From assembly GCA_963783905.1 (NCBI GenBank), contig CAWAPG010000005.1, positions 120,576-184,575 on the forward strand: DNA of 64,000 bases, read 5' to 3'. A program made the translations under genes and the position numbers. Below, in pieces: positions 2,213 to 56,657 of this stretch (its first letter is position 1; the number at the start of each line of letters is the position of its first letter). The notes beneath the pieces are model-generated. The model was not told the DNA's origin and made no database searches. It saw nothing but the letters and a program-made list of their open reading frames with translations. Source of the DNA: an uncultured delta proteobacterium. Its GTDB lineage: Bacteria > Desulfobacterota > Desulfobulbia > Desulfobulbales > BM004.

Positions 2213-2277
2213 TTTTTCCTCCTCACATCTGAAATTAACGATACAAAAGACTTGGTATAATTGGCTGCGGTCAGTAT

Positions 2278-2293
2278 AGCAAAAGTTGTGCCA
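2278..2293 (-). promoter_or_regulatory. Sigma-54 -24/-12 promoter
   Basis: TGGCACAACTTTTGCT matches TGGCAC-N5-TTGCW, about 65 bp upstream of the ATG. Confidence 0.8.
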
Positions 2294-2517
2294 GTTCATT
2301 ATGACAAACCGTTTTACAGTCTGGACAAAACCGGCACTATAAGGCAGGACGGAAGAATCCAAAGGAGAATTGGTGAGACTCCATTGTGGGTGGGGAAAAA
2401 ATATAGCGATCAGGAAAAATTATCTGATAACGGGTATTCTCCCGGGATAGCGTTTAGGGGAAAAAACACCGGTTGAATCGGGTTCGGAAGAAAAATTGGC
2501 GTTAATGTCTTAACAGA

Positions 2518-24240: not shown

Positions 24241-24296
24241 AAATAAAAGGCAGAGTACAGTTGGATAACGCATCATTTTACATAATGGAGGGCAAC

Positions 24297-26850: not shown

Positions 26851-27043
26851 GCACAAAGAAAGTGCTGGATTGTAAACAGAATAATTCAACGAAAGGAGGA
26901 GTCAAAAAAACGAGGGAGGTGAAGCTGCGAGAACACTGGAAACCTGCATCTGGAGCAAATACCTGGTCACAAGCGGAAGCAGGATGTAGCGAAAAAATGG
27001 CTTCCGCAGAGAGGCCGATGACCTTAATTGAGGAGGGAAGTAT

Positions 27044-39788: not shown

Positions 39789-40502
39789 TCATCCTCCCAG
39801 GTATGCCTTCTTTACTTCGGGATTATGGAGCAGCTCGTCGGCAGGACCTTCCAGAACGAGGCGGCCGTTTTCCAGGACATAGGCCCGCTGGGCAAATTTA
39901 AGCGCCAGCCGGGCATTTTGCTCGACCAGCAGGATCGAGGTGGATTCCCGGTTGATCTCCCTGAGGGCCTCGAACATCGAGAGCATGAGCAGAGGAGCAA
40001 GTCCCATGGAAGGTTCGTCCAGGAGCATGAGCTTACGGCCGCTCATGTAAGCCCGTCCCACGGCGAGCATCTGCTGTTCACCGCCGCTTAAGGTTCCGGC
40101 CATCTGGGATATGCGTTCCTTAAGGCGCGGGAAGATCGTAAAGACCTGCTCCGTATCCCTGGCGATCTTTTCCCTGTCCTTGCGGGCAAAGGTTGCCAGC
40201 CGCAGGTTTTCCATCACGGTAAGATTGCCGAACAGACGCCTCCCTTCCGGGACGTGCGAGATGCCCAACTCACTGACAACCTTGTCAGGCTGGTAATGAA
40301 GCAGGTTTTTGCCTTCAAAGGTCATGACCGATCCCCGGTCGGCCGGAATCAACCGTGAAATAGCGCGCAGAGTCGTACTTTTTCCGGCACCGTTGGCGCC
40401 GATGATGCAGACGATTTCGCCCCGGTCGATGGAGAAATCGAGGGAATGGAGGGCCCTGATCCTGCCGTATGAGACCTGTAGATTTTTTACTTCCATCTGC
40501 AT
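39789..40502 (-). CDS. livF: Branched-chain amino acid ABC ATPase
   Basis: GANGAGKS, PEGRRLF, LSGGEQQM, LDEPSMGLAP. Confidence 0.92.
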   Translation of the reverse strand: MQMEVKNLQVSYGRIRALHSLDFSIDRGEIVCIIGANGAGKSTTLRAISRLIPADRGSVMTFEGKNLLHYQPDKVVSELGISHVPEGRRLFGNLTVMENLRLATFARKDREKIARDTEQVFTIFPRLKERISQMAGTLSGGEQQMLAVGRAYMSGRKLMLLDEPSMGLAPLLMLSMFEALREINRESTSILLVEQNARLALKFAQRAYVLENGRLVLEGPADELLHNPEVKKAYLGG

Positions 40503-41272
40503 CAGTGGATTTCCTCCCTGCCGAGATAGGCCTCTATCACCTGCGGATTGTTTTTGATCTCATCCGGGGGACCTTCGGCAATAACTTCGCCGAAAACAAG
40601 GGTCTGGATCCTTTCGCACAACTCCATGACAAATTTCAAACGATGTTCGATGAGAAAAATGGCCACATCAAATTCTTCATGAATTTTTCTGATAATACCA
40701 ATCATACGGTTAAGCTCATCCGGGGTCATGCCGGCCGTCGGTTCATCAAGGAAAAGAACCTTGGGATTGGTCGCCATGGCCCGGGCCATTTCCACCCGGC
40801 GCTGGGCGCCGTAGGGCAGGCTGACGGCAAGCTGCGAGTTGAAATGGACAACGTCGAATGTTTCCAGCAGGTGCATGGCCTTGGCAGTGAGTCTTTTCTC
40901 TTCGCGGCGGCAGTGGCGGGAATTGAAAAAAGCGCCCCAGATGCCATACCCCAGCTGGGAATAGCAGGCCATTTTTACATGTTCTAGAACGGTCATGTGC
41001 CGCCAGAGCAGGAGATTCTGGAAGGTGCGGCCCAATCCCATGGCGGCGATCTCATGGGGATGATGGCCGATGAGATTTTGGCCGTCCAGTTCAATATTGC
41101 CTTCGGTGGGGGTGTGGATGCCGGAGATCAGGTTGAAGATCGTGGTCTTGCCGGCACCGTTCGGGCCGATGAGTCCAACGATATGTCCCGGTTCCAGAAC
41201 GAGGTTGTAGCCGTGTACGGCCCGCAGACCCCCGAAGTAATGGGTCATGTTGTCAACCCGCAGCAGCGCCAT
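40502..41272 (-). CDS. livG: Branched-chain amino acid ABC ATPase
   Basis: GPNGAGKT, RTFQN, LPYG, VIEAYLG. Confidence 0.92.
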   Translation of the reverse strand: MALLRVDNMTHYFGGLRAVHGYNLVLEPGHIVGLIGPNGAGKTTIFNLISGIHTPTEGNIELDGQNLIGHHPHEIAAMGLGRTFQNLLLWRHMTVLEHVKMACYSQLGYGIWGAFFNSRHCRREEKRLTAKAMHLLETFDVVHFNSQLAVSLPYGAQRRVEMARAMATNPKVLFLDEPTAGMTPDELNRMIGIIRKIHEEFDVAIFLIEHRLKFVMELCERIQTLVFGEVIAEGPPDEIKNNPQVIEAYLGREEIH

Positions 41273-41273
41273 A

Positions 41274-42620
41274 TTACTCTTCCTTCAGTTTATTCCGTTT
41301 AGGTTTCATAAGCTCTTTTGGTTTAAACTCGGTAAAGGCGATAAGGCCGGTGGGGCGGAAGAGCATGACCAGGATAAGCAGCAGCGGAATTATTATCCAT
41401 TTGTAAAGCTCAAGCGGCCGCAGGGCCTCGCCCAGAATATTGATGCTGACCGCCCCGACAATGGAACCGGTGACTGAATTGAGACCGCCGAAATAGACCA
41501 TGGCCAGAATCTCCGCCAGCCGCTGAATGCCGAAGGAGCTGGGGTTTACATAACGCAGGACATGGGCGAAAAGTCCGCCGGCAACACCGGCCCAGAAGGC
41601 CCCGAACATGAAGGTGATGATCTTTGTTTTGCGGGTATTGACCGTCATCGCCTCGGCCGCCAGTTCGTTGTCACGCACCGCGTTGAGGGCCTTGCCCATG
41701 GTTGAACGGACGAAATTATTGATGATCCAGATACAGAAGACCATGACCGTGAAAACCATGGGAAGGCTGGAATAATGAGGCTGGCTGGACATGCCGCGGG
41801 GCCCGCCGACCAGTTCGAGATTTTCGATCAAACTTTTGACGATAAAGAGAAAGGCAAGGGATATAATGGCAAGATAATCACCGCGGGTGCGGAAGGATGG
41901 TATGGCAATCACCAAGGCACCGATGGCTGCAGCAATGCCGCCGGCAATCAGGGCCAGCGGAAACAAATAAGGACCTAAAGCCTCCGGCAGCAGAGGGGTG
42001 CCGAACAACTTGTCGTCAACAAACAGCAGCAGGGTGATGGTTGAGGCGGTATAGGCGCCCAGTGCCATAAAACCGGGATGCGAGCAGGAAAATTCACCCA
42101 TATAGCCATTGATGACGTTGATGGAGAGCGTCAGCATGATGGCGATCATGGTGAGCTTTATGACCAGCAACCGGTAATCGCTCATATCGGCCCACAGGTG
42201 CAGGGCGCCGTAAAAAAGGCCGAGATGGACGAGAGACGCAACCGTTACCGGTTTTTGGTGAAGAAATTCCGCCAGCCTGTTTGCCGGCTTCTGCAGGAAT
42301 TTCACAATCAGGAAAATGGGAAGCAGGTAAACCAGGACCAGGTAGCCGATCGTACCTGGTATAAGCAACGGTTTTTTAAGCACCGTGAGAAAGCCGAAAA
42401 GCACTGGAATTTTAGGCAGGCCAAGATAGTAGGAAAGGAGATCGCCGAGGAAATATTCCAGCAGCACGGCTCCGAATATACCAAAAAGCCAGCCGATCAG
42501 CGGCACGGAGCCAACCAGATTCAGCAGCCGGGCTTTTATCCCCTTTCCGTTCTGCGGTGATGTGCGTTCCTGTATAGCCATCCTGTTATTTACGGTCACG
42601 ATTCCATGTATACCCTTCAA
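41274..42620 (-). CDS. livM: Branched-chain amino acid ABC permease
   Basis: RGDYLAI, AVRDNELAA, GG..S..G, RPTGL; start may be 42581. Confidence 0.88.
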   Translation of the reverse strand: MKGIHGIVTVNNRMAIQERTSPQNGKGIKARLLNLVGSVPLIGWLFGIFGAVLLEYFLGDLLSYYLGLPKIPVLFGFLTVLKKPLLIPGTIGYLVLVYLLPIFLIVKFLQKPANRLAEFLHQKPVTVASLVHLGLFYGALHLWADMSDYRLLVIKLTMIAIMLTLSINVINGYMGEFSCSHPGFMALGAYTASTITLLLFVDDKLFGTPLLPEALGPYLFPLALIAGGIAAAIGALVIAIPSFRTRGDYLAIISLAFLFIVKSLIENLELVGGPRGMSSQPHYSSLPMVFTVMVFCIWIINNFVRSTMGKALNAVRDNELAAEAMTVNTRKTKIITFMFGAFWAGVAGGLFAHVLRYVNPSSFGIQRLAEILAMVYFGGLNSVTGSIVGAVSINILGEALRPLELYKWIIIPLLLILVMLFRPTGLIAFTEFKPKELMKPKRNKLKEE

Positions 42621-42633
42621 GGCGTGCGATGCT

Positions 42634-43558
42634 TTACAACCTTAGTTGGGTGGAGTGCGCCTGGCCGAAGAAACCGTGCGGCCGGAATGTCAGAATGAGC
42701 AGAATTATGGAATAGGCAATGACATCCCGCAGGGTCGATGGGAAGATCCAGGCGACAAAAATTTCGATAAAGCCCAGGAGAAATCCGGCCAGGGCGGCAC
42801 CGAGAATGGAGCCCCGCCCGCCCAGGATGGCGGCAACAAAGGCTTTCCAGCCCAGGAGGATTCCCATGTACGGGTCAAGCACCGGGTAGGCGAGACCGTA
42901 TAAAATGCCGGCCGCAGATGCCAGGGCCGACCCGATGGCAAAGGTCAGCGGTGCAATCCTGTTGATGGAGATACCCATCAGTGGTACCGCCTCAAAATCA
43001 AAGGACATGGCCCGCATGGCCATGCCCCATTTACTTTTCTGGATGAAGCGGTGCAGGAGATACATGAGCCCCAGGGAAACCCCGACAATGAGTATCTTCT
43101 TGTTGGTTACATATACCCCGCCGAAGCGGTAGGTGACCGATTCGATAAGCTGGGGAAAACTGAGCCGGCGGGCCCCGAGAATGGCCAGGTTGCCGGTCTC
43201 CAGGATGATGCCGATCATGAGTCCGGTAATGGCGGCGGAAGCCCTGGGTGCATTCCGTAGGGGCCGATATCCCACCCGTTCAATGAACATGCCCACGAAG
43301 GAAGTGAAAAACATGGAAAAGAGGATGGTCAGGACAAGGATCAGCCAGCCGGGCAGCGGGATGCCGGTCATGGCGACAAACGCCGAGCAGGGCCGTCGCT
43401 ACACCGAAGCCGATATATGCGCCGACCATGAAGACATCGCCGTGGGCGAAATTGAACAGCATGAGGATGCTGTACACCATGGAATATCCCAGGGCGATCA
43501 GGGCGTAAAAGCTGCCCCATTGCAAGGCGTTTACAATGTTCTGGAGAAAAAGATCCAT
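42634..43558 (-). pseudogene. livH: Branched-chain amino acid ABC permease, frameshifted near 43380
   Basis: N-part (GSFYALIALGY...NFAHG) and C-part (G.AMRA, KAFVAAILGG, RPHG) are in different frames; one extra base, possibly an assembly error. Confidence 0.8.
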
Positions 43559-43564
43559 CCCGGC

Positions 43565-44746
43565 TCAGTTCGGACAGACGGATTTATAGAATTCGTATTC
43601 CCCCGTGTCGCTGATCCGGACAATAACAGCGCATTTGATCGGGTCTCCTTCTTTGGTAAACGTCATCTCACCGGTGATGCCTTTGAAGTTCTTAATTTGG
43701 GCCAGGGAGTCGCGCACCGCCCGGCGGTCGGTTTTGATATCGCCGGTGAGTTTGCCGGTATTTTCAATGGCGGTCTGGACGAGGCGGAGCGAATCCCAGG
43801 TCAGGGCCGCAACATCATCCGGGGTGTAGCCGTATTTTTTCTCGTAGCGTTCGATAAATTCCCTGGTGGCGCCCTGGGCCCCGGCAGCGGCATAATGGGT
43901 CGAGAAAAACAGGCCGTAGCAGTCCTTGCCGCAGAGGGTTACAGTTTCGGCCGAACCCCAGGAGTCGCTGCCGACAATGGGGCCGGTCCAGCCGAGTTCA
44001 TGGGCCTGCTGCACTATGAGGGCCACCTCGTTGTAATACTGGGGGGTGAAAAGCACCTGCGCCCCGGAGTTGTTGATCTTGCTGAGCTGGGAGCTGAAAT
44101 CGGTATCCTTGGTGGTGAAGCTTTCAAAGGCGACCACCGAACCGGGACCATGGATCTTTTCCCAGGCCTGTTTGAAAAATTCAGCCAGCCCCTTGGGATA
44201 GTCACTGGCCACATCATAGAGGACCGCCGCCTTGGTGAAGCCGAATTCGCCGGTGATGAAATTGGCCAGGACCGGGCCCTGGAAGGGGTCGAGGAAACAG
44301 CCCCGGAACACAAAGGGTCGGTCCTTGGTGGTGTCTGGATTTGTGGACCACGGGGTGATCATGGGGGTCTGGTAATTGTTGGCCACATCGCCGGCGGGTA
44401 CCGCCTGCTTGGAAGACTGCGGTCCAACAATGACCAGGACCTCGTCTTCGGTGATCATCTTGGTGTTGGCCTTGACCGCGGATTCGGCCTTGGATTCATT
44501 GTCCTCAATCACCAGTTCCACCGGGTATTTCTTGGAGCCGACCTCGATGCCGCCGGCTTTTTTTATGTCATCAAGCCACATCCGGGCGGCATATTTCGTG
44601 CCCTCGCCGACCTTGGGGATGTCACCGGTTATGGGAGCGTTGATGCCGACCTTGACCACTGTTTTGCGTCCGAAACACCAAGCGGTGCCGGATAGCAGCA
44701 ATACTCCGATCAGACCCCAGACAATACCCTCCAATACGCTTTTCAT
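43565..44746 (-). CDS. livK: Branched-chain amino acid ABC substrate-binding protein
   Basis: Signal peptide, APITG, FR.CF.D.FQG, DFSSQL; GAGGAGG RBS. Confidence 0.88.
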   Translation of the reverse strand: MKSVLEGIVWGLIGVLLLSGTAWCFGRKTVVKVGINAPITGDIPKVGEGTKYAARMWLDDIKKAGGIEVGSKKYPVELVIEDNESKAESAVKANTKMITEDEVLVIVGPQSSKQAVPAGDVANNYQTPMITPWSTNPDTTKDRPFVFRGCFLDPFQGPVLANFITGEFGFTKAAVLYDVASDYPKGLAEFFKQAWEKIHGPGSVVAFESFTTKDTDFSSQLSKINNSGAQVLFTPQYYNEVALIVQQAHELGWTGPIVGSDSWGSAETVTLCGKDCYGLFFSTHYAAAGAQGATREFIERYEKKYGYTPDDVAALTWDSLRLVQTAIENTGKLTGDIKTDRRAVRDSLAQIKNFKGITGEMTFTKEGDPIKCAVIVRISDTGEYEFYKSVCPN

Positions 44747-44958
44747 TTTACCTCCTCTCATTGCCTTAGAAGTTTGCAGGGAAAATTGAATTCACGTTGT
44801 AGATCTGCAATCGTAAAGTCATTTTTCTACCTTTAATCCCATGCAATTTACAACAGAAAAATTATGCCATTGCCGACGGGTATTTATACTTACAGGATAA
44901 AGCGTAAAAATACAATTTGCATGGTGAGAATTGTTGGGGAAAGCAGAGAGCTGTTTTT

Positions 44959-45996
44959 TTAATGAATTTTCCGGAACAGGATGAGGCCGAACCAGTTTTT
45001 GGCATCGGTATAGATTTTTACCGGCGCAAAACCGTAAGTTTCGAGATGTCTTTTGAGTTCCGGCAGATGGAACTTGCGGCTGATTTCCAGCTGCAGCCTC
45101 TCGCCTTCTGCCACAGAAAAAACCTTCTGCAGGGGTTCCACTTTTATTGTCTGGGCTGCGGTGAACCGGAGGTAAATCTCCATTCGGCTCTTTTCAGGAT
45201 TAAAGTAGGCGACGTGTTGAATCCGGTTGAGATCAACGGATGAACCAAGTTCACGGTTCATCCTGGCAACGTAATTTTTGGTAAAGGCCGCCGTTATCCC
45301 GGCGCTGTCGTTGTATGCCGCCTCCAGTATATGAACGTCCTTGGCCAGGTCTACCCCGAGGAGGAAATAATCACCGGCCTGCATATGCTGCGAGATATCC
45401 TGCCAGAATTGCCGCTCCTCCGGTTCGTTGAAATTACCCAGGGTGCTGCCGAGAAATATGACCAGTGCCGGCGAAGAGCAGCCTAGCAGTTGGAAAGAGT
45501 CATTGTAGGTACCGTGGATGCCGACTACCTGCACCGCAGGCCGTTTATTGATAATGGCCTTGCCGGCCGACCATAAGGCGGTGGCGCTGATATCAATGGG
45601 GGTATAGCAGATATTTCCATAATGGGCCTGGTAGGCGGAAAGAAGGTAATCGGTTTTTACCGAACTGCCGGAACCCAGTTCTACGAGGTGGCAGGAACCG
45701 GTCTCACCGCTGATCTCAAAGGCGTATTTCTGCAGGATCTCCGCTTCGGTTCGGGTCAGATAATACTCCGGTTGCGCGCATATTTTTTCATAGAGTTCGC
45801 TGCCCCGGGCATCGTATAGAAAACGGCATTCAAGCTGCCTGGGGTGTTTTTCCAGCCCTTCACAGACAGATGCGGCAAAGTCTTTGACCGGGTCCTGCAG
45901 ACTGCCTGCCTGCAGGACTACGTTCTGTTGATCATGGACCGCGGAATCGAACGTTTCAATCAGATTTTCATTATCGGTAAATGTTTCGTATTGCAC
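44959..45996 (-). CDS. egtD: L-histidine N-alpha-methyltransferase
   Basis: YDARGSELY..I...PEYYLTRTE, ELGSG, FLGSTLGN, AYND..G.TAAF..N, EISRKF. Confidence 0.93.
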   Translation of the reverse strand: MQYETFTDNENLIETFDSAVHDQQNVVLQAGSLQDPVKDFAASVCEGLEKHPRQLECRFLYDARGSELYEKICAQPEYYLTRTEAEILQKYAFEISGETGSCHLVELGSGSSVKTDYLLSAYQAHYGNICYTPIDISATALWSAGKAIINKRPAVQVVGIHGTYNDSFQLLGCSSPALVIFLGSTLGNFNEPEERQFWQDISQHMQAGDYFLLGVDLAKDVHILEAAYNDSAGITAAFTKNYVARMNRELGSSVDLNRIQHVAYFNPEKSRMEIYLRFTAAQTIKVEPLQKVFSVAEGERLQLEISRKFHLPELKRHLETYGFAPVKIYTDAKNWFGLILFRKIH

Positions 45997-46136
45997 AAGA
46001 GGCTCCTTTGAGTAATGCTTTGACAGTCTACATCCAGCCTGAAAAATAAATTATTATCTGGTATTGTTTATTAAACTAACTATGAAAGATGCGACGTCAA
46101 GCGCAACTGTCAAAAAGAGTAAAAAGGGAATAACGG

Positions 46137-49100
46137 ATGAAATCCGCTGCGGCAAAACATGAAAAGCGGGGTATCTGCGGTATCTGTTCCGCCGGCTGCT
46201 GGGTCAGGGTCACCTACGATGGAGCCGGCCGGATCGCCGCGGTTAAACCGGATGAGACCTCCCCATACGGTATGCTGTGCCGCACCGGACAGGCGGCCCC
46301 CGACGTGGTCTATTCTTCCGACAGGCTCCAGTATCCCATGCGCCGGAAAGGTCCGAAGGGCACCTTTGAGTTCGAGCGGATTTCCTGGGATGATGCCTTC
46401 AGCATAATTGTCGAAAACCTGCAGCGCATCAAGGAAGAATCCGGTCCTGAAGCCACTGCCGTCTACACCGGCAGCGGCAGTTTCGAACTGGCATTCTGTG
46501 ACATTTTTCAACCAAAAGGAGTGGCCGTATCTTCGGCGGCCAGCGTCCTGTTTCCTTTTGGGTCGCCCAATACCCTGGGAGTCGGTGCGCTCTGCTATGT
46601 TTCCTTTGCCATGATCGCACCCCATGTGACCATGGGTCGCCTCTATATCAACACCTTTACGGATGTTGAAAACGCGGAAATGGTTCTGATCTGGGGAAAA
46701 AACCCGGCCGCCCATGCACCGCCCACCGATTTTATCCGCATTCAGCAGGCTCACAGCCGCGGGGCAAAAATCGTGGTCATAGATCCCCGCCGCACCCTGC
46801 TGGCCAAATATCCGGACGCCGAATGGCTGCCGATCCGGCCAGGAACGGACGGCGCCCTGGCCCTGGGTTTATGCAATATCCTGATCGAGGAGGAGCTGTA
46901 CGACGAGTCTTTTGTCCGGAACTGGACCGTCGGTTTTGAGGAGTTCTCGCGCTATGTCCAGCATTTCCGGCCGGAGGTGGTCGAACAGATCACCGGTGTT
47001 CCGGCGGAAAAGGTCGTGGGACTTGCACGCCGGATTGCGGCTGCCAACGGTGTGGCACCGGTTATGTACAGCGGGCTGGAATACAGTGACGGTGCCGTGC
47101 AGGCAATCCGGGCCGTTTTTGTGCTCTGGGCCCTTGCCGGCCAGCTTGACGTGCCGGGGGGGTTCTGCTTCACCATGCCGGAAAATCATTTTCCAATCAA
47201 CCGCGCCGGCCATGTTGAAAATCCGGCCCCCCGCAAGGCTGCCGGCCATAACGATTTTCCAGTCTATACCAAATACCGGGGGGAATTTCATGCCGGCATC
47301 CTGCCCCGGGCGGTCCTGGAAAAAAAGCCGTATCCAATCCGGCTTCTGATAAGTCTGGGCGCGTCCATAATCAGTTCCTGGCCCCAGTCGGATGTCTGGC
47401 GCAGAACCCTCGCTGGTCTTGATTTCCTCACCTGCATTGACCGGCAGCTTACTGCGGATGCCGCCTACGCCGATATTCTGCTGCCGGCCGCCACCTATTA
47501 CGAGATTGAATCCTACATGGTTTATGGTTCTGCTTTCCGCATCCGCGAACGCATGATTGATCCAGTTGGCGAGGCGCGCAATGATTTTTTCATCATGGCT
47601 GAGCTGGCGCAGCGGTTGGGGTATGGCCATCTCTATCCGCAGAATGAAGAAGAACTCCTGCACCATGTGCTTAAAGGTTCCGGCTTCAGCCTGGAAGAGG
47701 TGCGAAAGGCGGGAGGCATGGTGCAGAAACCCGGAGCCATGATGCAGTACAGGAAGTGGGAGAAGGGATTGCTGCGACCGGACGGCATGCCGGGTTTTGA
47801 CACTCCGACCGGCAAGTTTGAGATCGCATCCACCATCCTGGAAGAATACGGATACGATTCCCTGCCGGTTTATGTGGAACCCGGAGAGAGCCCTCACTCA
47901 CAGCCTGACCTGGCCCGGGAGTTTCCCCTGGTGTTCAATTCCGGGGCCCGGGTCAATGTCGACCTGCATACACTGCACCTTACGGTTGCGAAACTGCAGA
48001 AGGACAAACCGGTGCCCACCGTTATGATCAATACCCGGGATGCGGCGGCGCGGTCCATTGTCAACGGCGACCGGGTCCTCCTGAAAACAAAACGCGGCCG
48101 GGTGGAAATGCATGCCTATGTCACCGACGACATAGTGGAGGGTGCCATTGAGGCAAGCGCTATGGGTGGCGGCCCCCTTGGTTCGGAGGAATGGCGGCAG
48201 GCCAATGTGAATACCCTTACGGATTTGGAAAGGTATGATCCGATTTCAGGGTTTCCGGTATACAAGGCCCTGCTGTGTGAGGTGAGCAAGGCAGGAGCCG
48301 GGGATGCGGACAATATAACCGGTTCGGGAGAATACAGCCGGAGCATTACCGCGGCAGCGGCGCCGGCGGTGCGCCGCATCTATCTGGACCATAACGCCAC
48401 CACCCCGGTGGCACCGGAGGTCAGGGAGGCCATGGTTGAAGCTGCCGGATTGTTCGGCAATCCTTCGAGCCTGTATGCCGAAGGCAGGGCATCGCAGATA
48501 TACATGGAGGATGCCAGGCGCCGTCTTGCACTTCTGCTGAACTGTACCGCCAGGCGCATCATCTTCACCGGCTCCGGTTCTGAGGCCAATAACCTAGCCA
48601 TCAAGGGAATTGCTTTTTCCGGTCATGGCAGGCAGCACATGATTACCTCGGCAATTGAGCATCCGTCAGTGTTGAATACCTGCCGGTGGCTCCAGAAACA
48701 GGGCTTTTCCATAACCTACCTCGAACCGGACCGGGACGGCATTGTGCAGCCCCAAACCCTGGAAAACGCGATGCGTAGCGATACATTCCTGGTTTCCATT
48801 ATGACGGCGAATAATGAAACGGGCGTCATTCAGCCGGTTAAAGAACTGGCGGCAATTGCCCATGCCGGGGAATGCGTATTCCACACTGATGCGGTCCAGG
48901 CAGTCGGCAAGATTCCCCTGGATATCACTGAACTCGATGCTGACCTGCTTTCCCTGTCCGGGCACAAGTTTCACGCGCCAAAGGGCATAGGAGCCCTGTA
49001 CATCAAAAAGGGTATAGTTATTGATTCCCTGGTGCATGGCGGCAAGCAGGAACACGGCCGGCGGGCCGGCACGGAAAATGTTGTCGGTATTGCCGGGATC

Positions 49101-49523
49101 GGCAAAGCCGCAGAAATCGCCCTGCAGAAGGTTGCGGAGATGGACCGCATTGCCCGGCTGCGCGACCGGCTTGAACAGAAGCTGTGCGAGTTTGTTCCGT
49201 CTGCGCACCGAAATGGCCACCGGTCAAAACGTCTGCCCAATACCCTTAACATTACCCTTCCCGGCATCCGCGGCGAGTCGCTCGTCCTGGCCCTTGATCA
49301 GCAGGGCATAGCCTGTTCTTCCGGGTCGGCCTGCCGTTCGGGTACACCTGATCCATCCCATGCCCTGACCGCCATGGGGCTTAGTGCAGAACAGGCGCAC
49401 TGCTCCCTGCGCTTTTCCCTGGGATACGGTAATTCCGAGGAGGATATTGACCGGGTAATCGAACGGATCGGAGAAATAATCAACAATCAGAAGTCGACAA
49501 TCCGTTTTGTATCCTGCCGGTGA
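46137..49523 (+). CDS. Molybdopterin/tungstopterin oxidoreductase fused to IscS-type cysteine desulfurase (metallopterin-dependent ergothioneine synthase-like)
   Basis: CGICSAGC...LC [4Fe-4S], RL.YP, PGTD.AL, ADILLP; C-terminal YLDHNATT, SGHKF, SSGSAC; divergent from egtD. Confidence 0.85.
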   Translation: MKSAAAKHEKRGICGICSAGCWVRVTYDGAGRIAAVKPDETSPYGMLCRTGQAAPDVVYSSDRLQYPMRRKGPKGTFEFERISWDDAFSIIVENLQRIKEESGPEATAVYTGSGSFELAFCDIFQPKGVAVSSAASVLFPFGSPNTLGVGALCYVSFAMIAPHVTMGRLYINTFTDVENAEMVLIWGKNPAAHAPPTDFIRIQQAHSRGAKIVVIDPRRTLLAKYPDAEWLPIRPGTDGALALGLCNILIEEELYDESFVRNWTVGFEEFSRYVQHFRPEVVEQITGVPAEKVVGLARRIAAANGVAPVMYSGLEYSDGAVQAIRAVFVLWALAGQLDVPGGFCFTMPENHFPINRAGHVENPAPRKAAGHNDFPVYTKYRGEFHAGILPRAVLEKKPYPIRLLISLGASIISSWPQSDVWRRTLAGLDFLTCIDRQLTADAAYADILLPAATYYEIESYMVYGSAFRIRERMIDPVGEARNDFFIMAELAQRLGYGHLYPQNEEELLHHVLKGSGFSLEEVRKAGGMVQKPGAMMQYRKWEKGLLRPDGMPGFDTPTGKFEIASTILEEYGYDSLPVYVEPGESPHSQPDLAREFPLVFNSGARVNVDLHTLHLTVAKLQKDKPVPTVMINTRDAAARSIVNGDRVLLKTKRGRVEMHAYVTDDIVEGAIEASAMGGGPLGSEEWRQANVNTLTDLERYDPISGFPVYKALLCEVSKAGAGDADNITGSGEYSRSITAAAAPAVRRIYLDHNATTPVAPEVREAMVEAAGLFGNPSSLYAEGRASQIYMEDARRRLALLLNCTARRIIFTGSGSEANNLAIKGIAFSGHGRQHMITSAIEHPSVLNTCRWLQKQGFSITYLEPDRDGIVQPQTLENAMRSDTFLVSIMTANNETGVIQPVKELAAIAHAGECVFHTDAVQAVGKIPLDITELDADLLSLSGHKFHAPKGIGALYIKKGIVIDSLVHGGKQEHGRRAGTENVVGIAGIGKAAEIALQKVAEMDRIARLRDRLEQKLCEFVPSAHRNGHRSKRLPNTLNITLPGIRGESLVLALDQQGIACSSGSACRSGTPDPSHALTAMGLSAEQAHCSLRFSLGYGNSEEDIDRVIERIGEIINNQKSTIRFVSCR

Positions 49524-49696
49524 GATTTTTCCATCGTGCTTCGGCAGAAATTTATGCCTGCACCGCTACCTATATCCGGTTATGGAAGAGAAAGACTTGT
49601 AATGTTCAGCTATTAATTGTTTTATGTACCCCATGATTTCTTTGGGATTTTCAACCGTTACGTTTTTCTCCGGTATGCCTCTAAAAAAGTGCGAGG

Positions 49697-50590
49697 GTGA
49701 AGTTGAATTTAAATAATTTTATCAGCAACTTAACAGACTTAATTTCAAGGCCTCTTCTCAAGATCGCCGGTACTGAGGTTACCCTCCTATCAATTTTTAT
49801 CTTTTTTGTTGTCGTTTCGGTCTCCACCGTCCTCTCGTTTGTCCTGCAACGGGCCTTGAAAAGATCACTGGCCCACAGGTTTGAAAAGCAGGAAGGAACA
49901 CTCGCGGCAATTTTACGGCTGGCTCATTATACCATTATCATCGTTGGCTTCGGCATCGGCCTGCAGATTATCGGCATCAATCTCAGCGCGCTGTTTGCCG
50001 CCGGTGCCGTCTTTGCCATTGCCATAGGCTTTGCCATGCAGAATATCGTTCAGAATTTCGTCTCGGGTATAATCCTGCTGGTCGAGCGCAGCATAAAGCC
50101 CGGGGATATTCTGGAGATTGAAGGCACGGTTGTGAGGGTTATCGACATGCGGATCCGGACCACGGTCGTGCGAACATGGCGGGAGGAGGAACTCATCATG
50201 CCCAACAATGTATTTGCCCAATCGACCGTTAAAAACTACACCCTGCGGGATAATGAATTCCGACTGGGGGTGACGGTAGGAGTATCCTATGCTTCAGATA
50301 TGAAAAAGGTGATCGAGGTCCTTGAAACAACAGCCCGGGATCTGCCCTGGCGTATGGCGCAGCCTGAACCCAGGGTTCTTCTGCAGGATTTTGGGGATTC
50401 GGCCGTGATCTTCGGGGTGTATGTCAATGTGGATGATCCATGGCGGCAGCGGGTCTTTATGTCGGATCTGCGCCGGGCCATCTGGTTTGCATTTATGGAG
50501 GCAAATATCGTCATTGCTTTCAACCAGGTTGACATTCATTTTGACCAACCGGTAACCGAGGCCTTTACCGGGCTGACCACCATTAAATAA
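49697..50590 (+). CDS. mscS: Small-conductance mechanosensitive channel
   Basis: GFAMQ...NFVSG, GD, PN motifs. Confidence 0.88.
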   Translation: MKLNLNNFISNLTDLISRPLLKIAGTEVTLLSIFIFFVVVSVSTVLSFVLQRALKRSLAHRFEKQEGTLAAILRLAHYTIIIVGFGIGLQIIGINLSALFAAGAVFAIAIGFAMQNIVQNFVSGIILLVERSIKPGDILEIEGTVVRVIDMRIRTTVVRTWREEELIMPNNVFAQSTVKNYTLRDNEFRLGVTVGVSYASDMKKVIEVLETTARDLPWRMAQPEPRVLLQDFGDSAVIFGVYVNVDDPWRQRVFMSDLRRAIWFAFMEANIVIAFNQVDIHFDQPVTEAFTGLTTIK

Positions 50591-50603
50591 CAGGCGGAAA
50601 GGA

Positions 50604-51581
50604 ATGACGGGAAGTGGTGACGGACTGATAACGGCGTATATCCTGGATGGCAGCGGCAGCGGCCACCAGGTCGGCTGGGAAGAAATCGGCTCTTGGCAGC
50701 CGGAACAGGGTATTCTCTGGATCCATCTGGATTACAGCATTCCGGCTGTGCAGCAGTGGCTTTATGAAATAAGCGAACTGGATGAGGTGATATGCGATGC
50801 GCTGACCGAAGAAGACTCCCGGCCGCGGTGCACCCCTTTTCACGAAGGACTGCTGCTGGGGTTGCGCGGGGTTAATTTCAACCCGGGATCGGATCCCGAG
50901 GATATGGTGGGAATCAGGATCTGGTTTGAAAAGGGCCGGATCATAAGCACCCGCAGGCGTAAACTCCTTTCCATCACAGATATTCAAACGGCGATAGAAC
51001 AGGGCAGCGGCCCGGAATCATTAAGTGATTTTCTGGTGCAGATAACCGGTAGGCTGATGGGGCGGATGGGGCAGGTCATTGACGACCTGGAGGATGCGGT
51101 GGCCGAGGTAGAAGACCAGGTTCTGACCTCGGAAAACCGGCAGCTGCGTCAGGAGCTGGCCTCCCTGCGGCGGCAGGCAATCAGTCTGCGCCGCTATCTG
51201 GCGCCACAGCGGGAGGCCCTGTCACGGTTGTTGACGGAAAAAATTTTCTGGCTGGATGAAAGGGACCGGATCAGGCTGCGGGAGGTTTACGACCAACTGT
51301 TCCGTTATATCGAGGATCTCGATGAAACGCGGGATCGGGCGGCAGTAACCCAGGAGCAGCTGATCAATACCCTTTCCGAACAAATAAACAACAAGATGTA
51401 TATCCTCTCGATCGTGGCCGCCGTATTTCTGCCGCTGGGCTTTCTGACCGGCCTGTTGGGCATAAATGTCGGCGGTATTCCGGGAGCTGAAAGCAGGCTG
51501 GGATTTCCGATATTTGTTCTGCTGCTGCTGGGAGTTGTCGTTTTTCAGATCTGGTTCTTCAAGAAAAAGAAATGGCTGTGA
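50604..51581 (+). CDS. zntB: ZntB/CorA-family zinc transporter
   Basis: WIHLD, RPR, LRRYLAPQR, FLPLGFLTGLLGINVGGIP. Confidence 0.9.
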   Translation: MTGSGDGLITAYILDGSGSGHQVGWEEIGSWQPEQGILWIHLDYSIPAVQQWLYEISELDEVICDALTEEDSRPRCTPFHEGLLLGLRGVNFNPGSDPEDMVGIRIWFEKGRIISTRRRKLLSITDIQTAIEQGSGPESLSDFLVQITGRLMGRMGQVIDDLEDAVAEVEDQVLTSENRQLRQELASLRRQAISLRRYLAPQREALSRLLTEKIFWLDERDRIRLREVYDQLFRYIEDLDETRDRAAVTQEQLINTLSEQINNKMYILSIVAAVFLPLGFLTGLLGINVGGIPGAESRLGFPIFVLLLLGVVVFQIWFFKKKKWL

Positions 51582-51627
51582 TTTCCGGTAAGGAGAAATT
51601 ACTGCAATATAGGGATTATCCATCTAA

Positions 51628-51703
51628 GAATTCTGGGGACACCATACTTAATTACACAAAAACAGGGGTTAAAGATGAATTAAGTATGGTGTCCCCAGAA
51701 TTC
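51628..51703. repeat. Perfect 26-bp inverted repeat element (REP/MITE-like)
   Basis: GAATTCTGGGGACACCATACTTAATT-N24-AATTAAGTATGGTGTCCCCAGAATTC between convergent genes. Confidence 0.85.
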
Positions 51704-51759
51704 CTCCAGCACCAGCCCTTAACCACCCTCTGTTTTTCCCAGTCACCAGGGAGGCTATT

Positions 51760-52782
51760 TCAGGGATGGGGCAGCTCTGCAATAACAGCATAAAATTTCT
51801 TCATGACCTCCGGCGGGATCGCTGAATGCCAGTGTCCGGTCATAATCGCAATACCGTAGAATAGAAAAAAAATACCGAGTACCGCTGCCGGCAGAAGCAG
51901 GATTGAATTTTTACTGCGGCCGGGGGCTGAAAGGGTTAAACAGTCTTCAACAGGACAGACGGAGACGCATTCGGTGCAGCCGATGCATTCCGCGGTGCGG
52001 ACGGTATTTTTGGTCGTGATCCGGATGGACCCCGGGCAGGTCTTTTCACATTTCTTGCAGTCGATGCAGCTTTTTTCGTCACGTTTCACCTGTAAGGGGC
52101 CGGCCAGGGCGAGGAGACCGAGCAAAGCGCCGTAGGGGCAGAGATAGCGGCACCAGAAGTTGCGGTAAATAAACGAGACCCCCACCAGGAGGATCATGAT
52201 GGAGGCTGCAAGTGTCGAGGGGCCCAGAAAGAAAAGCAGCATCTTTGCGTCAACGGCCAGATTGTAGGGTGAAGTATGAAACGACTCGATCTGCGGCAGG
52301 GTCATTTTCCAGACGATGAGATACAGAAAGAAAAAAAGCAGCAGGTATTTTATCGATAAGAGCGGCAGGTCGAGCCAGGCCGGCGGCCGCCGGAGGATTT
52401 TCAGCTTTCTGCCTGTTTTTTCGGCCAGGTTGGAGGTAAATCCCACCGGGCAGATCCAGCCGCAGAACCCCTTGCGCAGCAGCAGCCCGAGACACAAGGC
52501 GGCCAGAAAAATGGTGAGCCCGGCAGGATGGATCATGTCATACCGGCCGGTCAGAATAAGCCTTTTCAAACCGACAAGGGCACTTATGGGCAGAAAACCT
52601 TCCACCGATGGCGGACGCGGCACGTACGCCGAGCTCCGGCCGCTGGCCCATAGATAAAAGAGATAAAAGCGATATCCTCCATACAGACAGAAAAGGGCGA
52701 AACCGGCCTGTACCGAGGTTCTGAGTATTTTGATCCAGCGAGGCCGGATGAGATTCATATGTGAGATTCGCTTCTCATTCAT
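51760..52782 (-). CDS. Membrane 4Fe-4S binding protein (YccM/NapH-like)
   Basis: FCGWICPVG, WCRYLCPYG, CIDCKKC...CP, CIGCTEC...CP. Confidence 0.88.
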   Translation of the reverse strand: MNEKRISHMNLIRPRWIKILRTSVQAGFALFCLYGGYRFYLFYLWASGRSSAYVPRPPSVEGFLPISALVGLKRLILTGRYDMIHPAGLTIFLAALCLGLLLRKGFCGWICPVGFTSNLAEKTGRKLKILRRPPAWLDLPLLSIKYLLLFFFLYLIVWKMTLPQIESFHTSPYNLAVDAKMLLFFLGPSTLAASIMILLVGVSFIYRNFWCRYLCPYGALLGLLALAGPLQVKRDEKSCIDCKKCEKTCPGSIRITTKNTVRTAECIGCTECVSVCPVEDCLTLSAPGRSKNSILLLPAAVLGIFFLFYGIAIMTGHWHSAIPPEVMKKFYAVIAELPHP

Positions 52783-52816
52783 GCAGCCATCATATCATGT
52801 CCGGGAAATCCAGCCT

Positions 52817-52830
52817 TTGACCTAAATCAA
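52817..52830. promoter_or_regulatory. FNR/HcpR-type box
   Basis: TTGACCTAAATCAA, close to TTGAT-N4-ATCAA, 35 bp upstream of the yccM-like gene. Confidence 0.6.
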
Positions 52831-53157
52831 GCCGCGTTATTTCTGGTTCGATATTTGCCGCTCCTGTAAAGCGGCACATTGAAATGTGCTCTTCAATGTG
52901 ATTTCAAAGGGTTGTGATACCGACTCAAATAATGAAACAGATGCAAAAATCCACAAACTTCAATTATTGAATTTATATATTAGAGAGTCAATATATCCGT
53001 CGGACACCTTTGCTGGATTGCAGTAATTGAAAGCCGTAAAGCTGTTAAGACAGGGAAAACCACACAAAAATAACGACAAAACCGCTTATCAATCCTTTAA
53101 AGGACGATAGAAAGACCAAAGAGGCTGTTTCTTGAGGGGGACTGCAAGAGATCCCGA

Positions 53158-53706
53158 TCAATCCTTGTGGTCCATCTCCTGCATGTCTGATCCCATTTCG
53201 TTGCCGGTGAGGCTCTTCAAATAGGCAACCAGGTCGACCCATTGCTGCAGGGTGAGGGCATCCCGGTAACTGGGCATGATCGAGAGGCCGTCCGGTCCGG
53301 TGAAGCCGGGGCCGATGATGATGATGGCGTTCGGTTCGAGAATGGACTCGGCGAAATACTCCGCCGGATGATGACTGCCCATGCCGGTGAGGTTGGGCCC
53401 GGGCCCGGTATCTTTTTGATTGTCGGAAAATGGCTCCCCCTGCACCACATGGCAGGAAAAACACTGCATCCTGATAAACACCTGTCGCCCCACCTGGGCG
53501 TCGCCGGCGGGCATGGTGAATTTCCATCTTGGCGGAAGACCGCCGAGCCGATGCAGTTCCTTCATGGTTATGTGAAGCGGCTCACTATTTGCTGAACCGG
53601 TGAGAGCGACATTGTCGGGGGCGCCCGTCTCATGGGCCGCCGCCGGGTTTAACAGGAATAAGCAGAAGATCGGGATGAAAAACAGAATCCAATTGATGAC
53701 TTTCAT
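53158..53706 (-). CDS. Monoheme c-type cytochrome
   Basis: Signal peptide, GDA..G...F, CFSCH, GPNL, ESILEP, MP. Confidence 0.85.
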   Translation of the reverse strand: MKVINWILFFIPIFCLFLLNPAAAHETGAPDNVALTGSANSEPLHITMKELHRLGGLPPRWKFTMPAGDAQVGRQVFIRMQCFSCHVVQGEPFSDNQKDTGPGPNLTGMGSHHPAEYFAESILEPNAIIIIGPGFTGPDGLSIMPSYRDALTLQQWVDLVAYLKSLTGNEMGSDMQEMDHKD

Positions 53707-53987
53707 GTTGATTTTCCTTTTCGGTTTTCTCTATCCGTAACGGCTTTTTATTGTTTCATCAGATCCGGCAGAAATTCTATCGGTCCAGTCAAAATCTCCC
53801 GGCCTGGGTGGGTGATAAGTAATCGCTATTTCGCCCGCGCCAAAATTCGGGACGGTTCTCTGAATCAGCCCCCGGCTCGTCGCAGTTATTGAACCATTAA
53901 TGGATAACCGGACGCCCTGTCAACAAGAACTACATATTTCTTGCCACAAGTGTGCCACGAACGCACCAAAGGGTTTTATACTCCAAA

Positions 53988-54217
53988 GTGCGGTGCTGTA
54001 CAAGAGATGAGGGTGGGTTCCTCGAAGCCGTTATGCAGGTGGAGGCTTCAAACTACCTTAAGCTGCGCTGGTAAAGAGCCAGGGTGGTGAGCGTTAAGGA
54101 AAAGGCCTCGCAGGACGAGGTCAGGTAGGATTCAAGAAGGCGAGCGCAAGCGAACCACTGATGAGGTGTCGAAAAGCTAAAGATGACGTCAAAACCGGAG
54201 GCTTGTGGTACTCCGGG
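53988..54217 (+). mobile_element. Truncated group II intron (5' end, part of domain I)
   Basis: Begins GTGCGG; contains GGCGAGCGCAAGCGAACC and GATGACGTCAAAACCGG blocks recalled from bacterial group II introns; no RT ORF or domain V follows. Confidence 0.65.
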
Positions 54218-54544
54218 CTACTCGACTAGATGGTTTTTATACCTGCTGGTTACCTCCCTGATGTATGATGGCTATCTCAGCTTTTCATTAAATCGGCGGT
54301 AGTTCCGATTGCACTGCTTCCCGGCGCCCCTCATCCGACTTATTCTAATTCGATATCGGCGGGTTTTTCATGTCTGTAAGCCTGGCAAGGGTCAATATGG
54401 ATTCATTATAACTTGGGCTTCAGGATCGTCCAGAAGAGGTATTATCACGGGAATAGATTGGACGGAACCGGAAAAGCCGAGACCCCGGACGGCTGACATA
54501 AATTGACACGGGCTATTGCAGGTGAGACTTTTTAGAGATGTATA

Positions 54545-54685
54545 TTATCCCGGCTGCACCGGTATGTCCACGGTAAGCCCTCCAACCCCATGGCGGCTCT
54601 TTTCACCGCCGTAGAAGATGGTGATAAGCACGGCCACAAGCAGCCCCAGTCCAATCAGCAAGATAATCAGGTCATCCTTTTTCAT
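54545..54685 (-). CDS. Small single-pass membrane protein (46 aa)
   Basis: MKKDDLIILLIGLGLLVAVLITIFYGGEKSRHG...; below the ORF-track cutoff. Confidence 0.45.
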   Translation of the reverse strand: MKKDDLIILLIGLGLLVAVLITIFYGGEKSRHGVGGLTVDIPVQPG

Positions 54686-54769
54686 TCTGTTTTATAGTAT
54701 AAGTATTGGTTATGCCAATCGGAAAGAAAACCGGTAGATATATAATTTGCTTGTAAAGGACATACAATA

Positions 54770-55771
54770 ATGTACCTGGCGGAACATACCATAAACGGGA
54801 GGAAAAGGTATATAATCAGGGACTCGCAGTATGATCCTGATAACGATTGCTGGCAGAGCAGAGACCTGTTCGACCTGGGGCGGTCACCATGGGAGTATAT
54901 CAAGTATCCGGGCGGCAATGCCTTCCATATAGCGGAACCGGTCACCGAGCAGCTGGAAGCCCTGGGGTTGGAACCTGACCTCTGTGAGCTGGAGGAGCTG
55001 TTCTGGCGATTTATCAGAAAGGAGATCAGGCAGAAGATTGAACCTTTTTATTGCCGCAGCCGCAGAAGTCCGAGAAAAAAGATAAAAAGTCTTGCCGAAC
55101 AGCAGGTGCGGTTTTTTGACAAACGACGCATGTATTATCTGCGCTGCGGTGCGGTGGATCAAAGGATGCTCGCCCGGATGCCGCTCAGATATTTTAAACC
55201 GCTGCTGAACAAGTCCAGGGACGAGATAGAACAGTATCTGATGCAGCTGGAAAAAAGTCTGAATCCCCGGGAGTACAAACAGTACGTCTACGTTATTTTT
55301 GATCTGCAGCGTTATTTCCGTTCCACCCCGGCCCGGTCAATTCCTCAGGCCCTGGACCAGGATGAGCTGGATACATATTTTCTCAAAGACCTGTGCCGGC
55401 TGAACAGGGATGAATTCTTCTGGGCCGGATTTGCCAGAGGGGACAAGATGCATGAATATCTGGTCCGTTATGCAGTCATGTTTTTTGATTATGACTTTGA
55501 CGGCGGCTCTGCCTGGCATGAGTATCTGCAGAATTTTATCAACTCAAAACGGTTCTATCGGGCACCACCGGCGCAGACAAGGGTTGCCATAACCGAAATC
55601 GTGGAAATATTCGGAGTGACGGAAAGAAAACTCAGGGCAATGGGAAAAAGTGAGCTGACCAGGCTGTTCCGGCGGAAGGCGCATGAACTTCATCCGGACA
55701 AGGGCGGAGAGCATGACGCCTTTGTCAGGTTAACCGAGGCGTATCATGAGCTGCTGCACAAGATATGTTAA
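54770..55771 (+). CDS. Protein with C-terminal J domain
   Basis: FRRKAHELHPDKGG...F..L.EAY. Confidence 0.8.
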   Translation: MYLAEHTINGRKRYIIRDSQYDPDNDCWQSRDLFDLGRSPWEYIKYPGGNAFHIAEPVTEQLEALGLEPDLCELEELFWRFIRKEIRQKIEPFYCRSRRSPRKKIKSLAEQQVRFFDKRRMYYLRCGAVDQRMLARMPLRYFKPLLNKSRDEIEQYLMQLEKSLNPREYKQYVYVIFDLQRYFRSTPARSIPQALDQDELDTYFLKDLCRLNRDEFFWAGFARGDKMHEYLVRYAVMFFDYDFDGGSAWHEYLQNFINSKRFYRAPPAQTRVAITEIVEIFGVTERKLRAMGKSELTRLFRRKAHELHPDKGGEHDAFVRLTEAYHELLHKIC

Positions 55772-55935
55772 ATGGTCAAATAGTTATCATTGAAGATTTA
55801 TCGTCATACGATACGAGACGATGATTGACAGAGAAATTGAACAGTGAAAACTTGAGGCGGAAAATTTTTCTATTTATAATCTTCAATCTTCAATTTCTTA
55901 AATTTTTAATCAGATAAATCCCTGAACCCATCTCT

Positions 55936-56472
55936 TTATGCCCGTTCCTGCAGGAATCGTTTGAGTACATAAATCCCGTCCGGGGTAAACGGCTCTTTTT
56001 CACTTAAAGCCAGAACCGTACCTGGGGCAGCAAAAAACCCGCTTTCCACTTCCTCTGCCTGCAGATGTATCTGCCCATCGTGGATGCAGGAATAGACCCT
56101 GCCCCAAACCCTGTTTTTGCCCTCTTCATAAAAAAAAGCGAAATGGGAAACGAGGTTTGTATTCCGTATGCCCAATTCTTCCTGAAGTTCACGCCTGGCA
56201 GATTCATCGTAACCTTCACCGGCGAGCACCACGCCGCCGGTGGCCGCATCGTAATAGCCGGGATAGACGTCTTTGGTCATGGTTCGTTTCTGGACATACA
56301 GTTCGCCCCTGCTGTTGAAGACCAGAACGTAGGCGGCGCGATGCACCAAACCCCTGCTCCGCATCACATGCCTGGGAGCAGTGCCCGTTTCTCTGTTGTT
56401 GCTGTCAACGATCTGGACAATTTCATTGCGGGGATTCTGGCCTGGTTTTTGAAAATCATGCCGTTTATGCAT
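55936..56472 (-). CDS. NUDIX hydrolase (YfcD-like)
   Basis: HRA.YV.VFN, QKR...KD.YPG..D, GG....GE.....ARREL.EELG. Confidence 0.88.
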   Translation of the reverse strand: MHKRHDFQKPGQNPRNEIVQIVDSNNRETGTAPRHVMRSRGLVHRAAYVLVFNSRGELYVQKRTMTKDVYPGYYDAATGGVVLAGEGYDESARRELQEELGIRNTNLVSHFAFFYEEGKNRVWGRVYSCIHDGQIHLQAEEVESGFFAAPGTVLALSEKEPFTPDGIYVLKRFLQERA

Positions 56473-56657
56473 TATGACCGCCCGTTTGCTGCCGTACCAT
56501 TAATATATTTCCGGCCTGAAAAGAATGATTGTTAATAAAAGTTTACCAAATCGGCAAGGGATTAACCATACTGCAGCGAAAGCTGAAAAAGTATGCAGGT
56601 GCGAATGAAAATAACGGGAACTGGGTAAAAAAAATAATTATAGGGTAGAATGTTGGA

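Follow-up and report, generated by a model that had tools for sequence, protein, structure and literature searches.

A probable MES-type, oxygen-independent ergothioneine gene pair in an uncultured member of the Desulfobulbales

An intact divergent gene pair

The subject of this report is a pair of divergently oriented genes in a 64,000-nucleotide stretch of DNA (the window throughout) from the genome of an uncultured delta proteobacterium of the order Desulfobulbales, a sulfur bacterium of the sediment type. One is egtD, for a predicted histidine methyltransferase, and the other encodes a homologue of CaMES, Caldithrix abyssi's metallopterin-dependent ergothioneine synthase (MES). Together the two genes very probably encode an oxygen-independent, MES-type route to the antioxidant ergothioneine, in which the chemistry and the sulfur relay would follow those of the Caldithrix enzyme and in which expression of the genes and accumulation of ergothioneine in the cell are presumed.

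The listing of open reading frames (ORFs) and their translations showed an intact two-gene pair, both ORFs being uninterrupted. A first-pass annotation, made from the sequence of the window, had placed egtD and a 1128-residue gene back to back across 140 bp, and the ORF coordinates agree with this on both strands (Table 1). The sequence AAGGAG lies seven bases 5' of the GTG start of egtD, and a purine-rich, Shine-Dalgarno-like stretch precedes both ORFs. An AT-rich stretch of the intergenic region is common to the window and to one related locus (L003), and an Rfam scan of positions 44000-50500 gave no family match at E up to 0.1. The same annotation had reported no egtB or eanB nearby; consistent with this, FGE-sulfatase and DinB_2 proteins were absent from a Pfam scan of 58 ORFs of the window. 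At a distance of 43 kb are the sole rhodanese ORFs in the window (857-2362), which are part of a protein with a signal peptide and a CXXCH motif.

The MES protein has both modules and all of the tested residues of the Caldithrix enzyme

In the passages of Beliaeva & Seebeck (2022; PMC9516567) that deal with its make-up, MES is defined as an acetylene hydratase-related metallopterin module fused to a functional cysteine desulfurase. The 1128-residue protein fits this description. Pfam assigned PF04879 (an Fe4S4 domain, weakly, 21.4 bits against a cut-off of 22.7), PF00384 (molybdopterin oxidoreductase) and PF01568 (dinucleotide-binding), covering residues 10-711, and PF00266 (class-V aminotransferase), covering residues 748-1107. 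For the C-terminal module the best NCBIfam model was NifS (TIGR03402, 491 bits against a cut-off of 530.75), followed by IscS, which was also under its equivalog cut-off. The first-pass description of a bis-molybdopterin guanine dinucleotide (bis-MGD) oxidoreductase fused to a desulfurase is thus borne out as a two-module architecture in a single chain by Pfam, by NCBIfam and by collinearity with the C. abyssi protein; its term "IscS-type" was roughly right, the nearest model being NifS and IscS coming next.

For comparison with CaMES we used P0123, a protein of 1136 aa from a metagenome-assembled genome (MAG) labelled Caldithrix abyssi (locus L035). By BLASTP the two proteins are 64% identical end to end over 1137 columns with 10 gap positions, and the sole sizeable gap falls in the linker between the modules. 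The residues named for CaMES are the Fe-S cysteines C14, C17, C21 and C48, the metal ligand C153, the lysine that binds pyridoxal phosphate (PLP), K952, and the C-terminal cysteines C1074, C1097 and C1135 (PMC9516567, passages on the named residues); C153, K952, C1074 and C1135 are given there as essential in vivo. All nine are kept in the window protein, the last four as K944, C1066, C1089 and C1127, so that the alignment with CaMES proposed in the first-pass annotation as a check on its reading shows every mutagenesis-tested residue conserved.

Across an alignment of 14 sequences from several phyla, none of these nine residues varies. A wider set of relatives came from a scan of prokaryotes at one genome per species, which gave 512 stretches encoding a relative, 80 of them kept as loci. 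Among the 64 loci whose sequence spans the nine residues, only L071 and L006 deviate, which leaves 62 with all nine identical; the four Fe-S cysteines were present in 79-80 of the 80. Cys153 sits in the invariant motif GVGALCYVSFAMIAPHV. The C-terminal tail RF[VI][SP]CR was kept in the loci inspected, with a variant, QFALCR, in the archaeal locus L061.

Among solved structures, acetylene hydratase (2e7z, E 1.8e-71) came closest to the N-terminal module, in agreement with what PMC9516567 gives for CaMES, and no full-length MES structure was found among the PDB entries searched by sequence. The MES gene is present in a single copy, and the other metallopterin enzymes of the genome are at most 30% identical to its product.

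Table 1. Features of the egtD-MES unit and molybdopterin synthesis genes in the window (positions are those of the window)
Feature	Position	Strand	Description
egtD	44959..45996	-	345 aa, GTG start; PF10017 + TIGR03438; predicted L-histidine N-alpha-methyltransferase, product trimethylhistidine (TMH, hercynine)
Intergenic region	45997..46136		140 bp between the two divergent starts
Promoter-like site for MES gene	46020-46047		TTGACA, 16 nt, AAAAAT; consensus match 10/12, pattern match only
MES gene	46137..49523	+	1128-aa metallopterin-dependent ergothioneine synthase homologue; 64% identity to C. abyssi homologue
Cys14, Cys17, Cys21, Cys48 codons	46176..46280	+	Predicted 4Fe-4S ligands; invariant in 14-sequence alignment
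bis-MGD-type metallopterin module	46323..48269	+	PF00384 residues 63-492, PF01568 residues 605-711
Cys153 codon	46593-46595	+	Predicted Mo/W ligand, within metallopterin module; invariant
Variable linker	48288..48374	+	About residues 718-746; 14-sequence consensus mostly without a majority residue
PLP-dependent cysteine desulfurase module	48378..49523	+	PF00266 residues 748-1107
Lys944 codon	48966-48968	+	PLP lysine; aligns to C. abyssi K952
Cys1066 codon	49332-49334	+	Aligns to C. abyssi C1074; Cys1089 aligns to C1097
Cys1127 codon	49515-49517	+	Penultimate residue, tail RFVSCR; aligns to C. abyssi C1135
MoaA	32628-33692	+	PF04055 + PF06463; molybdopterin cofactor synthesis; context, outside the egtD-MES unit
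MoaC-MoaB/MogA-type fusion	33790-34719	+	PF01967 + PF00994; molybdopterin cofactor synthesis; context only

EgtD is the recurrent partner of MES

The product of egtD scored 328.7 bits against TIGR03438 (equivalog cut-off 290.9) in NCBIfam and matched PF10017 (Methyltransf_33), a family of SAM-dependent histidine methyltransferases, at E 7.6e-99 in Pfam. It is the sole egtD copy in the genome. Its best solved relatives were the mycobacterial EgtD structures, with a gap-free alignment to 4uy7 (E 3.6e-57). The passages of PMC8593015 on histidine binding name Tyr39, Tyr56, Thr163, Asn166, Tyr206, Glu282 and Ser284 as contacts in mycobacterial EgtD, and the equivalents of all seven are identical in the window protein.

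An egtD gene adjoins the fusion gene in 61 of the 80 loci, downstream on the same strand in 44, upstream on the same strand in 14 and divergently in 3. In most of the remaining 19 loci (16) the sequence stops no more than 1.2 kb from the MES gene; L020, L042 and L074 have room on both sides. The pairing of egtD with MES is not chance. In the other linked loci MES is 62-83% identical to the window copy. The divergent order, together with an EgtD 68-74% identical to that of the window, was found only in L001-L003, which belong to Desulfobulbaceae/Desulfobulbales. MES-linked EgtDs are diverse: the median identity is 38.8% within the remaining loci and 35% between these and the Desulfobulbaceae set, where no pair exceeds 42%. 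By these identities the Desulfobulbaceae EgtD appears to be a deep separate branch. In a large protein collection the closest relatives of the window EgtD (100% to 51% identity) that carry a name were all assigned to Desulfobulbaceae, Desulfobacterales or 'Deltaproteobacteria'.

The recurrence of this pairing bears on a different account of the fusion protein, in which it would be a general cysteine desulfurase or a cofactor sulfurase, serving Fe-S clusters or the molybdenum cofactor (Moco), and would lie next to egtD incidentally. Public annotations of its relatives do read 'cysteine desulfurase NifS' or 'IscS subfamily cysteine desulfurase', and its C-terminal module is 47% and 43% identical to the two stand-alone desulfurases of the genome. 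Those names are automatic, however, the module falls under both the NifS and the IscS equivalog cut-offs, and the genome already has two stand-alone desulfurases. The linkage to egtD, moreover, recurs across many phyla, and Table 1 of PMC9516567 lists four MES homologues of different lineages that produced ergothioneine in E. coli. We consider a general desulfurase extremely unlikely. Recognition of the protein as an MES homologue corrects the routine misannotation of such 1128-residue proteins as 'cysteine desulfurase NifS/IscS'.

No second candidate for TMH sulfurisation was recognised in the genome

The genome comprises 3.23 Mb in 20 contigs and is 100% complete by marker genes, with 0.44% contamination. 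Genome-wide there was no match to EgtB (TIGR03440) and none to the FGE-sulfatase domain (PF03781); the absence of this domain excludes OvoA- and SenA-type enzymes as well. Rhodanese domains gave 22 matches. One candidate on another contig, a 636-aa tandem-rhodanese protein, was closer to a generic sulfurtransferase (1e0c, 2.8e-28) than to the 441-460-aa 'Sulfurtransferase' chains 6kvw, 6ktv, 6h98 and 6ku1 (5.5e-17 to 1.1e-16), which we take to be EanB. No convincing EanB was found among the roughly five multi-rhodanese ORFs, one of which was compared with solved structures and the others with NCBIfam models, where they were ExtH-like or generic. As far as these models can tell, MES is the only recognisable enzyme of the genome that would sulfurise TMH.

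Supply of the molybdopterin cofactor is plausible from the gene content, which includes MoaA and a MoaC-MoaB fusion 12 kb upstream in the window (Table 1), a MobA-like ORF and a TupABC-like transporter. The TupA-TupB-TupC-like operon at C2:263526-265823 (locus L091, 1393-3690) is the sole molybdenum or tungsten uptake system found; the ModA and WtpA models had no match in the complete genome. Uptake of the Tup type only leans towards tungsten, and the metallopterin enzymes of the organism may be tungsten enzymes. CaMES itself was active in E. coli irrespective of supplementation with molybdenum or tungsten, according to the part of PMC9516567 that describes its expression.

The fused proteins form one clade with a patchy distribution

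A library of representatives at 50% identity was searched with residues 1-720 of MES. It gave a single fused representative, of 1139 aa and 68% identical, followed by unfused proteins of 735 aa at 52% and 51%, others at 42-44% and a long tail at 31-38%. A tree of 47 metallopterin modules was then built. It took in the window protein, the C. abyssi protein and the fused representative, 17 loci hand-picked from the 80 so as to span the taxonomy, and 27 of the 150 listed representatives. These 27 were hand-picked from more than 100 listed entries of near-full length (at least 674 aa); the other such entries, like the fragments and partial matches, were not used. In this tree, a quick IQ-TREE search with support from the Shimodaira-Hasegawa-like approximate likelihood ratio test (SH-aLRT) only and no bootstraps, all 20 of 20 fused forms, the C. 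abyssi protein included, fell on one side of a branch with SH-aLRT 96. Branch lengths were 0.09-0.28 within the fused clade and about 0.7-2.3 outside it. The window protein clustered with two Desulfobulbaceae MAGs (support 100). The reading of the first-pass annotation would have been contradicted by a protein that groups outside the MES clade; the metallopterin module instead nests inside the fused clade with the C. abyssi homologue.

Two unfused proteins of 735 aa (P0245 and P0246), 51-52% identical to the N-terminal module, form its sister branches in the tree. They could be split forms of MES or enzymes that sulfurise other substrates.

The closest named relatives of the window MES are from Desulfobulbaceae. 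The 512 stretches that encode a relative, at one genome per species, compare with 55 MES-bearing genomes counted in 2022 (PMC9516567, passage on distribution), so that the family is far wider than that count and extends to hundreds of genomes. Of 151 genomes sampled from the order, 13 carry a full-length MES and 2 a partial one at a contig end; a raw tally of 89 for this sample includes stand-alone desulfurases. In the genus of the window 8 of 13 genomes carry MES, in two forms that are 79-83% (G098, G034, G070) and 58-59% (G105, G046) identical to the window copy. Patchy occurrence and two forms within one genus argue for horizontal movement.

An alternative is that the genes are intact but silent, or used only under some conditions, with no build-up of ergothioneine by the organism where it lives. 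The trait is patchy, and the flanks of the gene pair are not conserved even in close relatives, which suggests an accessory module that moves horizontally. On the other hand, both ORFs are full length and free of stops with a Shine-Dalgarno-like stretch before each, and identities of 79-83% to the closest copies in the genus indicate that MES is under strong constraint. Silence or merely conditional use of the pair seems very unlikely.

The proposed route and the points against it

By homology with CaMES, the route to ergothioneine would begin with EgtD, which is predicted to methylate histidine to TMH. The C-terminal PLP module of MES would then take sulfur from free cysteine to form a persulfide on Cys1066. 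The penultimate residue, Cys1127, on the flexible tail RFVSCR, may receive this sulfur and carry it to the molybdenum or tungsten of the bis-MGD cofactor, for which the ligand is presumably Cys153 of the chain's own N-terminal module. Attack by the imidazole ring of TMH on a metal-sulfido species would place the sulfur at C2. A mechanism with a metal-sulfido species attacked by the TMH imidazole is the proposal made in section 8 of PMC9516567.

Several points weigh against this route. The case for ergothioneine formation is one of sequence comparison, and no RNA run that contains positions 44800-49700 was among those listed. P0123 matches the published CaMES in length and residue numbering and served as a stand-in for the assayed enzyme, to which it is presumably equivalent. 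The window EgtD is just 28-44% identical to MES-linked EgtDs of other phyla, and its pocket differs from that of mycobacterial EgtD at two positions (F47Y and M252I); we take Met252 to be a pocket position of the mycobacterial enzyme. Low identity and the two pocket changes leave the substrate of EgtD as one assigned by inference, and the mycobacterial numbering was mapped by hand from a printed alignment on the assumption of chain index + 1. On the side of the cofactor, the MobA-like ORF scored 95.9 bits, under its family cut-off of 151.85, and TupA and TupB are under their equivalog cut-offs, though these are their best family matches. With these points counted, the MES-type route to ergothioneine is still, in our judgement, very probable.

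Selenium

The organism uses selenium, as the first-pass annotation had it: the genome encodes a tRNA for selenocysteine (tRNA-SeC), SelA (622 bits) and two SelD proteins (C10:84919-85848 and C2:51486-52415; loci L082 and L083), whose genes have one in-frame TGA each. Rhodanese matches with an in-frame TGA occur at six places in the genome, one of them in the window. The window ORF (857-2212, minus strand) combines a signal peptide and a CXXCH haem motif with three rhodanese domains and has an in-frame TGA at 1610-1612 in the active-site loop of the first rhodanese domain (FYCGGPTUTMS); with readthrough it would be a candidate selenoprotein of 451 codons. Contig C13 carries an operon of the ExtH/ExtI type for selenite or tellurite reduction (50000-56500, locus L088), with a 783-aa ExtH-like rhodanese protein (419.5 bits, cut-off 200), a porin ExtI (483 bits, cut-off 150) and a second ExtH-like ORF alongside.

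These features raise the question of selenoneine. The same enzyme pair might also make selenoneine, or make mainly selenoneine when selenium is replete, if the NifS-type module formed, from selenocysteine, a perselenide that passed to the molybdenum or tungsten centre and on to TMH. NifS and IscS enzymes also act on selenocysteine. The organism's heavy use of selenium (tRNA-SeC, SelA, two selenocysteine-containing SelD proteins, the TGA-bearing rhodanese ORFs and the ExtH/ExtI operon) would fit such a role. The genome had no TIGR03440 or PF03781 match that could mark a SenA-type selenoneine synthase (no search was made for SenB), hence another route would be needed. The ergothioneine pathway of fission yeast, moreover, is on record as also yielding selenoneine (PMC4020840).

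The desulfurase module, however, has no selenocysteine-lyase signature (95.5 bits against the SclA model, cut-off 525), and it does not differ from MES of other lineages at its key residues or by any distinguishing feature. Free selenocysteine is normally scarce, since selenocysteine is made on its tRNA. Among the literature matches listed, judged by title or start of abstract, there was no report of MES assayed with selenium, and the passages that mention MES do so as an ergothioneine enzyme only. Selenoneine formation is thus neither supported nor excluded by the sequence, and we regard it as an unlikely, low-probability idea. We would give only a slim chance to the stronger proposal that MES accepts selenium, as selenocysteine or perselenide, besides sulfur, and is the first oxygen-independent route to selenoneine; the cofactor would then probably hold tungsten rather than molybdenum, because the Tup-type transporter is the sole uptake system found for either metal. 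Formation of ergothioneine remains the preferred function of the pair.

Flanking genes and recurrent neighbours

The genes that flank the pair do not appear to be parts of the pathway. A Liv-type ABC transporter (39789-44761) lies downstream of egtD and is kept in L002 only; MscS (49697-50590) and CorA (50604-51581) lie downstream of MES and are kept in 0 of the 80 loci. Clustering of 670 neighbour ORFs from 81 loci gave no third conserved pathway gene, as none beyond MES and EgtD occurred in more than 16 loci, and the cluster found in 16 consisted of generic histidine kinases.

Some families recur near MES and EgtD in other lineages and are absent here. They are small DinB_2 proteins (9 loci), pyridine-nucleotide disulfide reductases (6 loci), DUF5996 (6), betaine-transporter-type fusions of OpuAC and permease (5) and DUF427 (5); examples of such ORFs are at L028:10986-11474, L018:9727-11094, L060:7472-8407, L063:3207-4700 and L080:5473-5757. 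An ORF between egtD and MES in L002 (4763-5044) looks DUF427-like by eye. It is possible that these recurrent neighbours are partners that use, recycle or transport ergothioneine.

Elsewhere in the window, positions 24261-28630 (plus strand) encode a cytochrome c3-like protein, a 4Fe-4S dicluster protein, an NrfD-type membrane subunit and a multihaem cytochrome, and the cluster looks like a membrane-bound redox complex of a kind common in sulfur- and sulfate-respiring bacteria. For an 817-aa ORF at 15683-18136 (plus strand) Pfam gave nothing with an E-value of 1e-5 or below.

Significance and comparison with known systems

Judged by its genes and their relatives, the locus appears to be a genuine MES-type pathway and a clear further example of the system first described in 2022, not a new system. 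It leaves the understanding of the MES enzyme class unchanged, and its lineage-local peculiarities (the divergent order, the deep-branching EgtD and the Tup-only uptake) are minor. It places anaerobic ergothioneine synthesis in sulfur bacteria of the Desulfobulbaceae type. A full-text literature search gave no paper linking ergothioneine to Desulfobulbaceae or other Desulfo- groups, the metallopterin papers being judged among the matches listed by title or start of abstract; the lineage may figure among the MES genomes of 2022. With MES, a full selenocysteine system and uptake that is apparently for tungstate only, the organism would be a reasonable host in which to study the metal choice and chalcogen promiscuity of MES.

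CaMES is the closest point of reference. The window protein shares with it the two-module architecture, a similar length (1128 and 1136 aa), 64% identity, the clade and identical Fe-S cysteines, metal-ligand cysteine, PLP lysine, persulfide cysteine and penultimate relay cysteine; both are encoded with EgtD in genomes that have neither EgtB nor EanB. The two differ in phylum, the closest named relatives of the window protein being Desulfobulbaceae, and in the setting of egtD, which diverges from MES in the window but shares its strand in 58 of the 61 linked loci. The window EgtD also branches deeply and separately, its group being no more than 42% identical to other MES-linked EgtDs, and the window linker is 8 residues shorter.

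The other routes to this class of product are more distant. EanB, the rhodanese-type enzyme of green sulfur bacteria and archaea, likewise sulfurises TMH without oxygen and has EgtD as a partner, but its fold is unrelated to that of MES and its sulfur comes from polysulfide. The sulfoxide synthases EgtB/Egt1, and SenA, likewise act on TMH, and their products belong to the same class; in contrast to MES they are oxygen- and iron-dependent enzymes of the FGE-sulfatase/DinB fold, and no such domain was found in the genome of the window.

Acetylene hydratase (2e7z), of the DMSO-reductase family, shares the bis-MGD fold, the N-terminal 4Fe-4S site and the cysteine metal ligand, and is 27% identical to CaMES according to the comparison given in PMC9516567. 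It has no desulfurase fusion, however, and catalyses hydration rather than formation of a C-S bond. In the Moco sulfurases Aba3 and MOCOS, as discussed in section 4 of that paper, a NifS-like desulfurase also delivers sulfur to a molybdenum centre. There the transfer is a single maturation step before the cofactor is inserted, whereas in MES it is proposed to occur at every turnover, with the sulfur passed on to the substrate.

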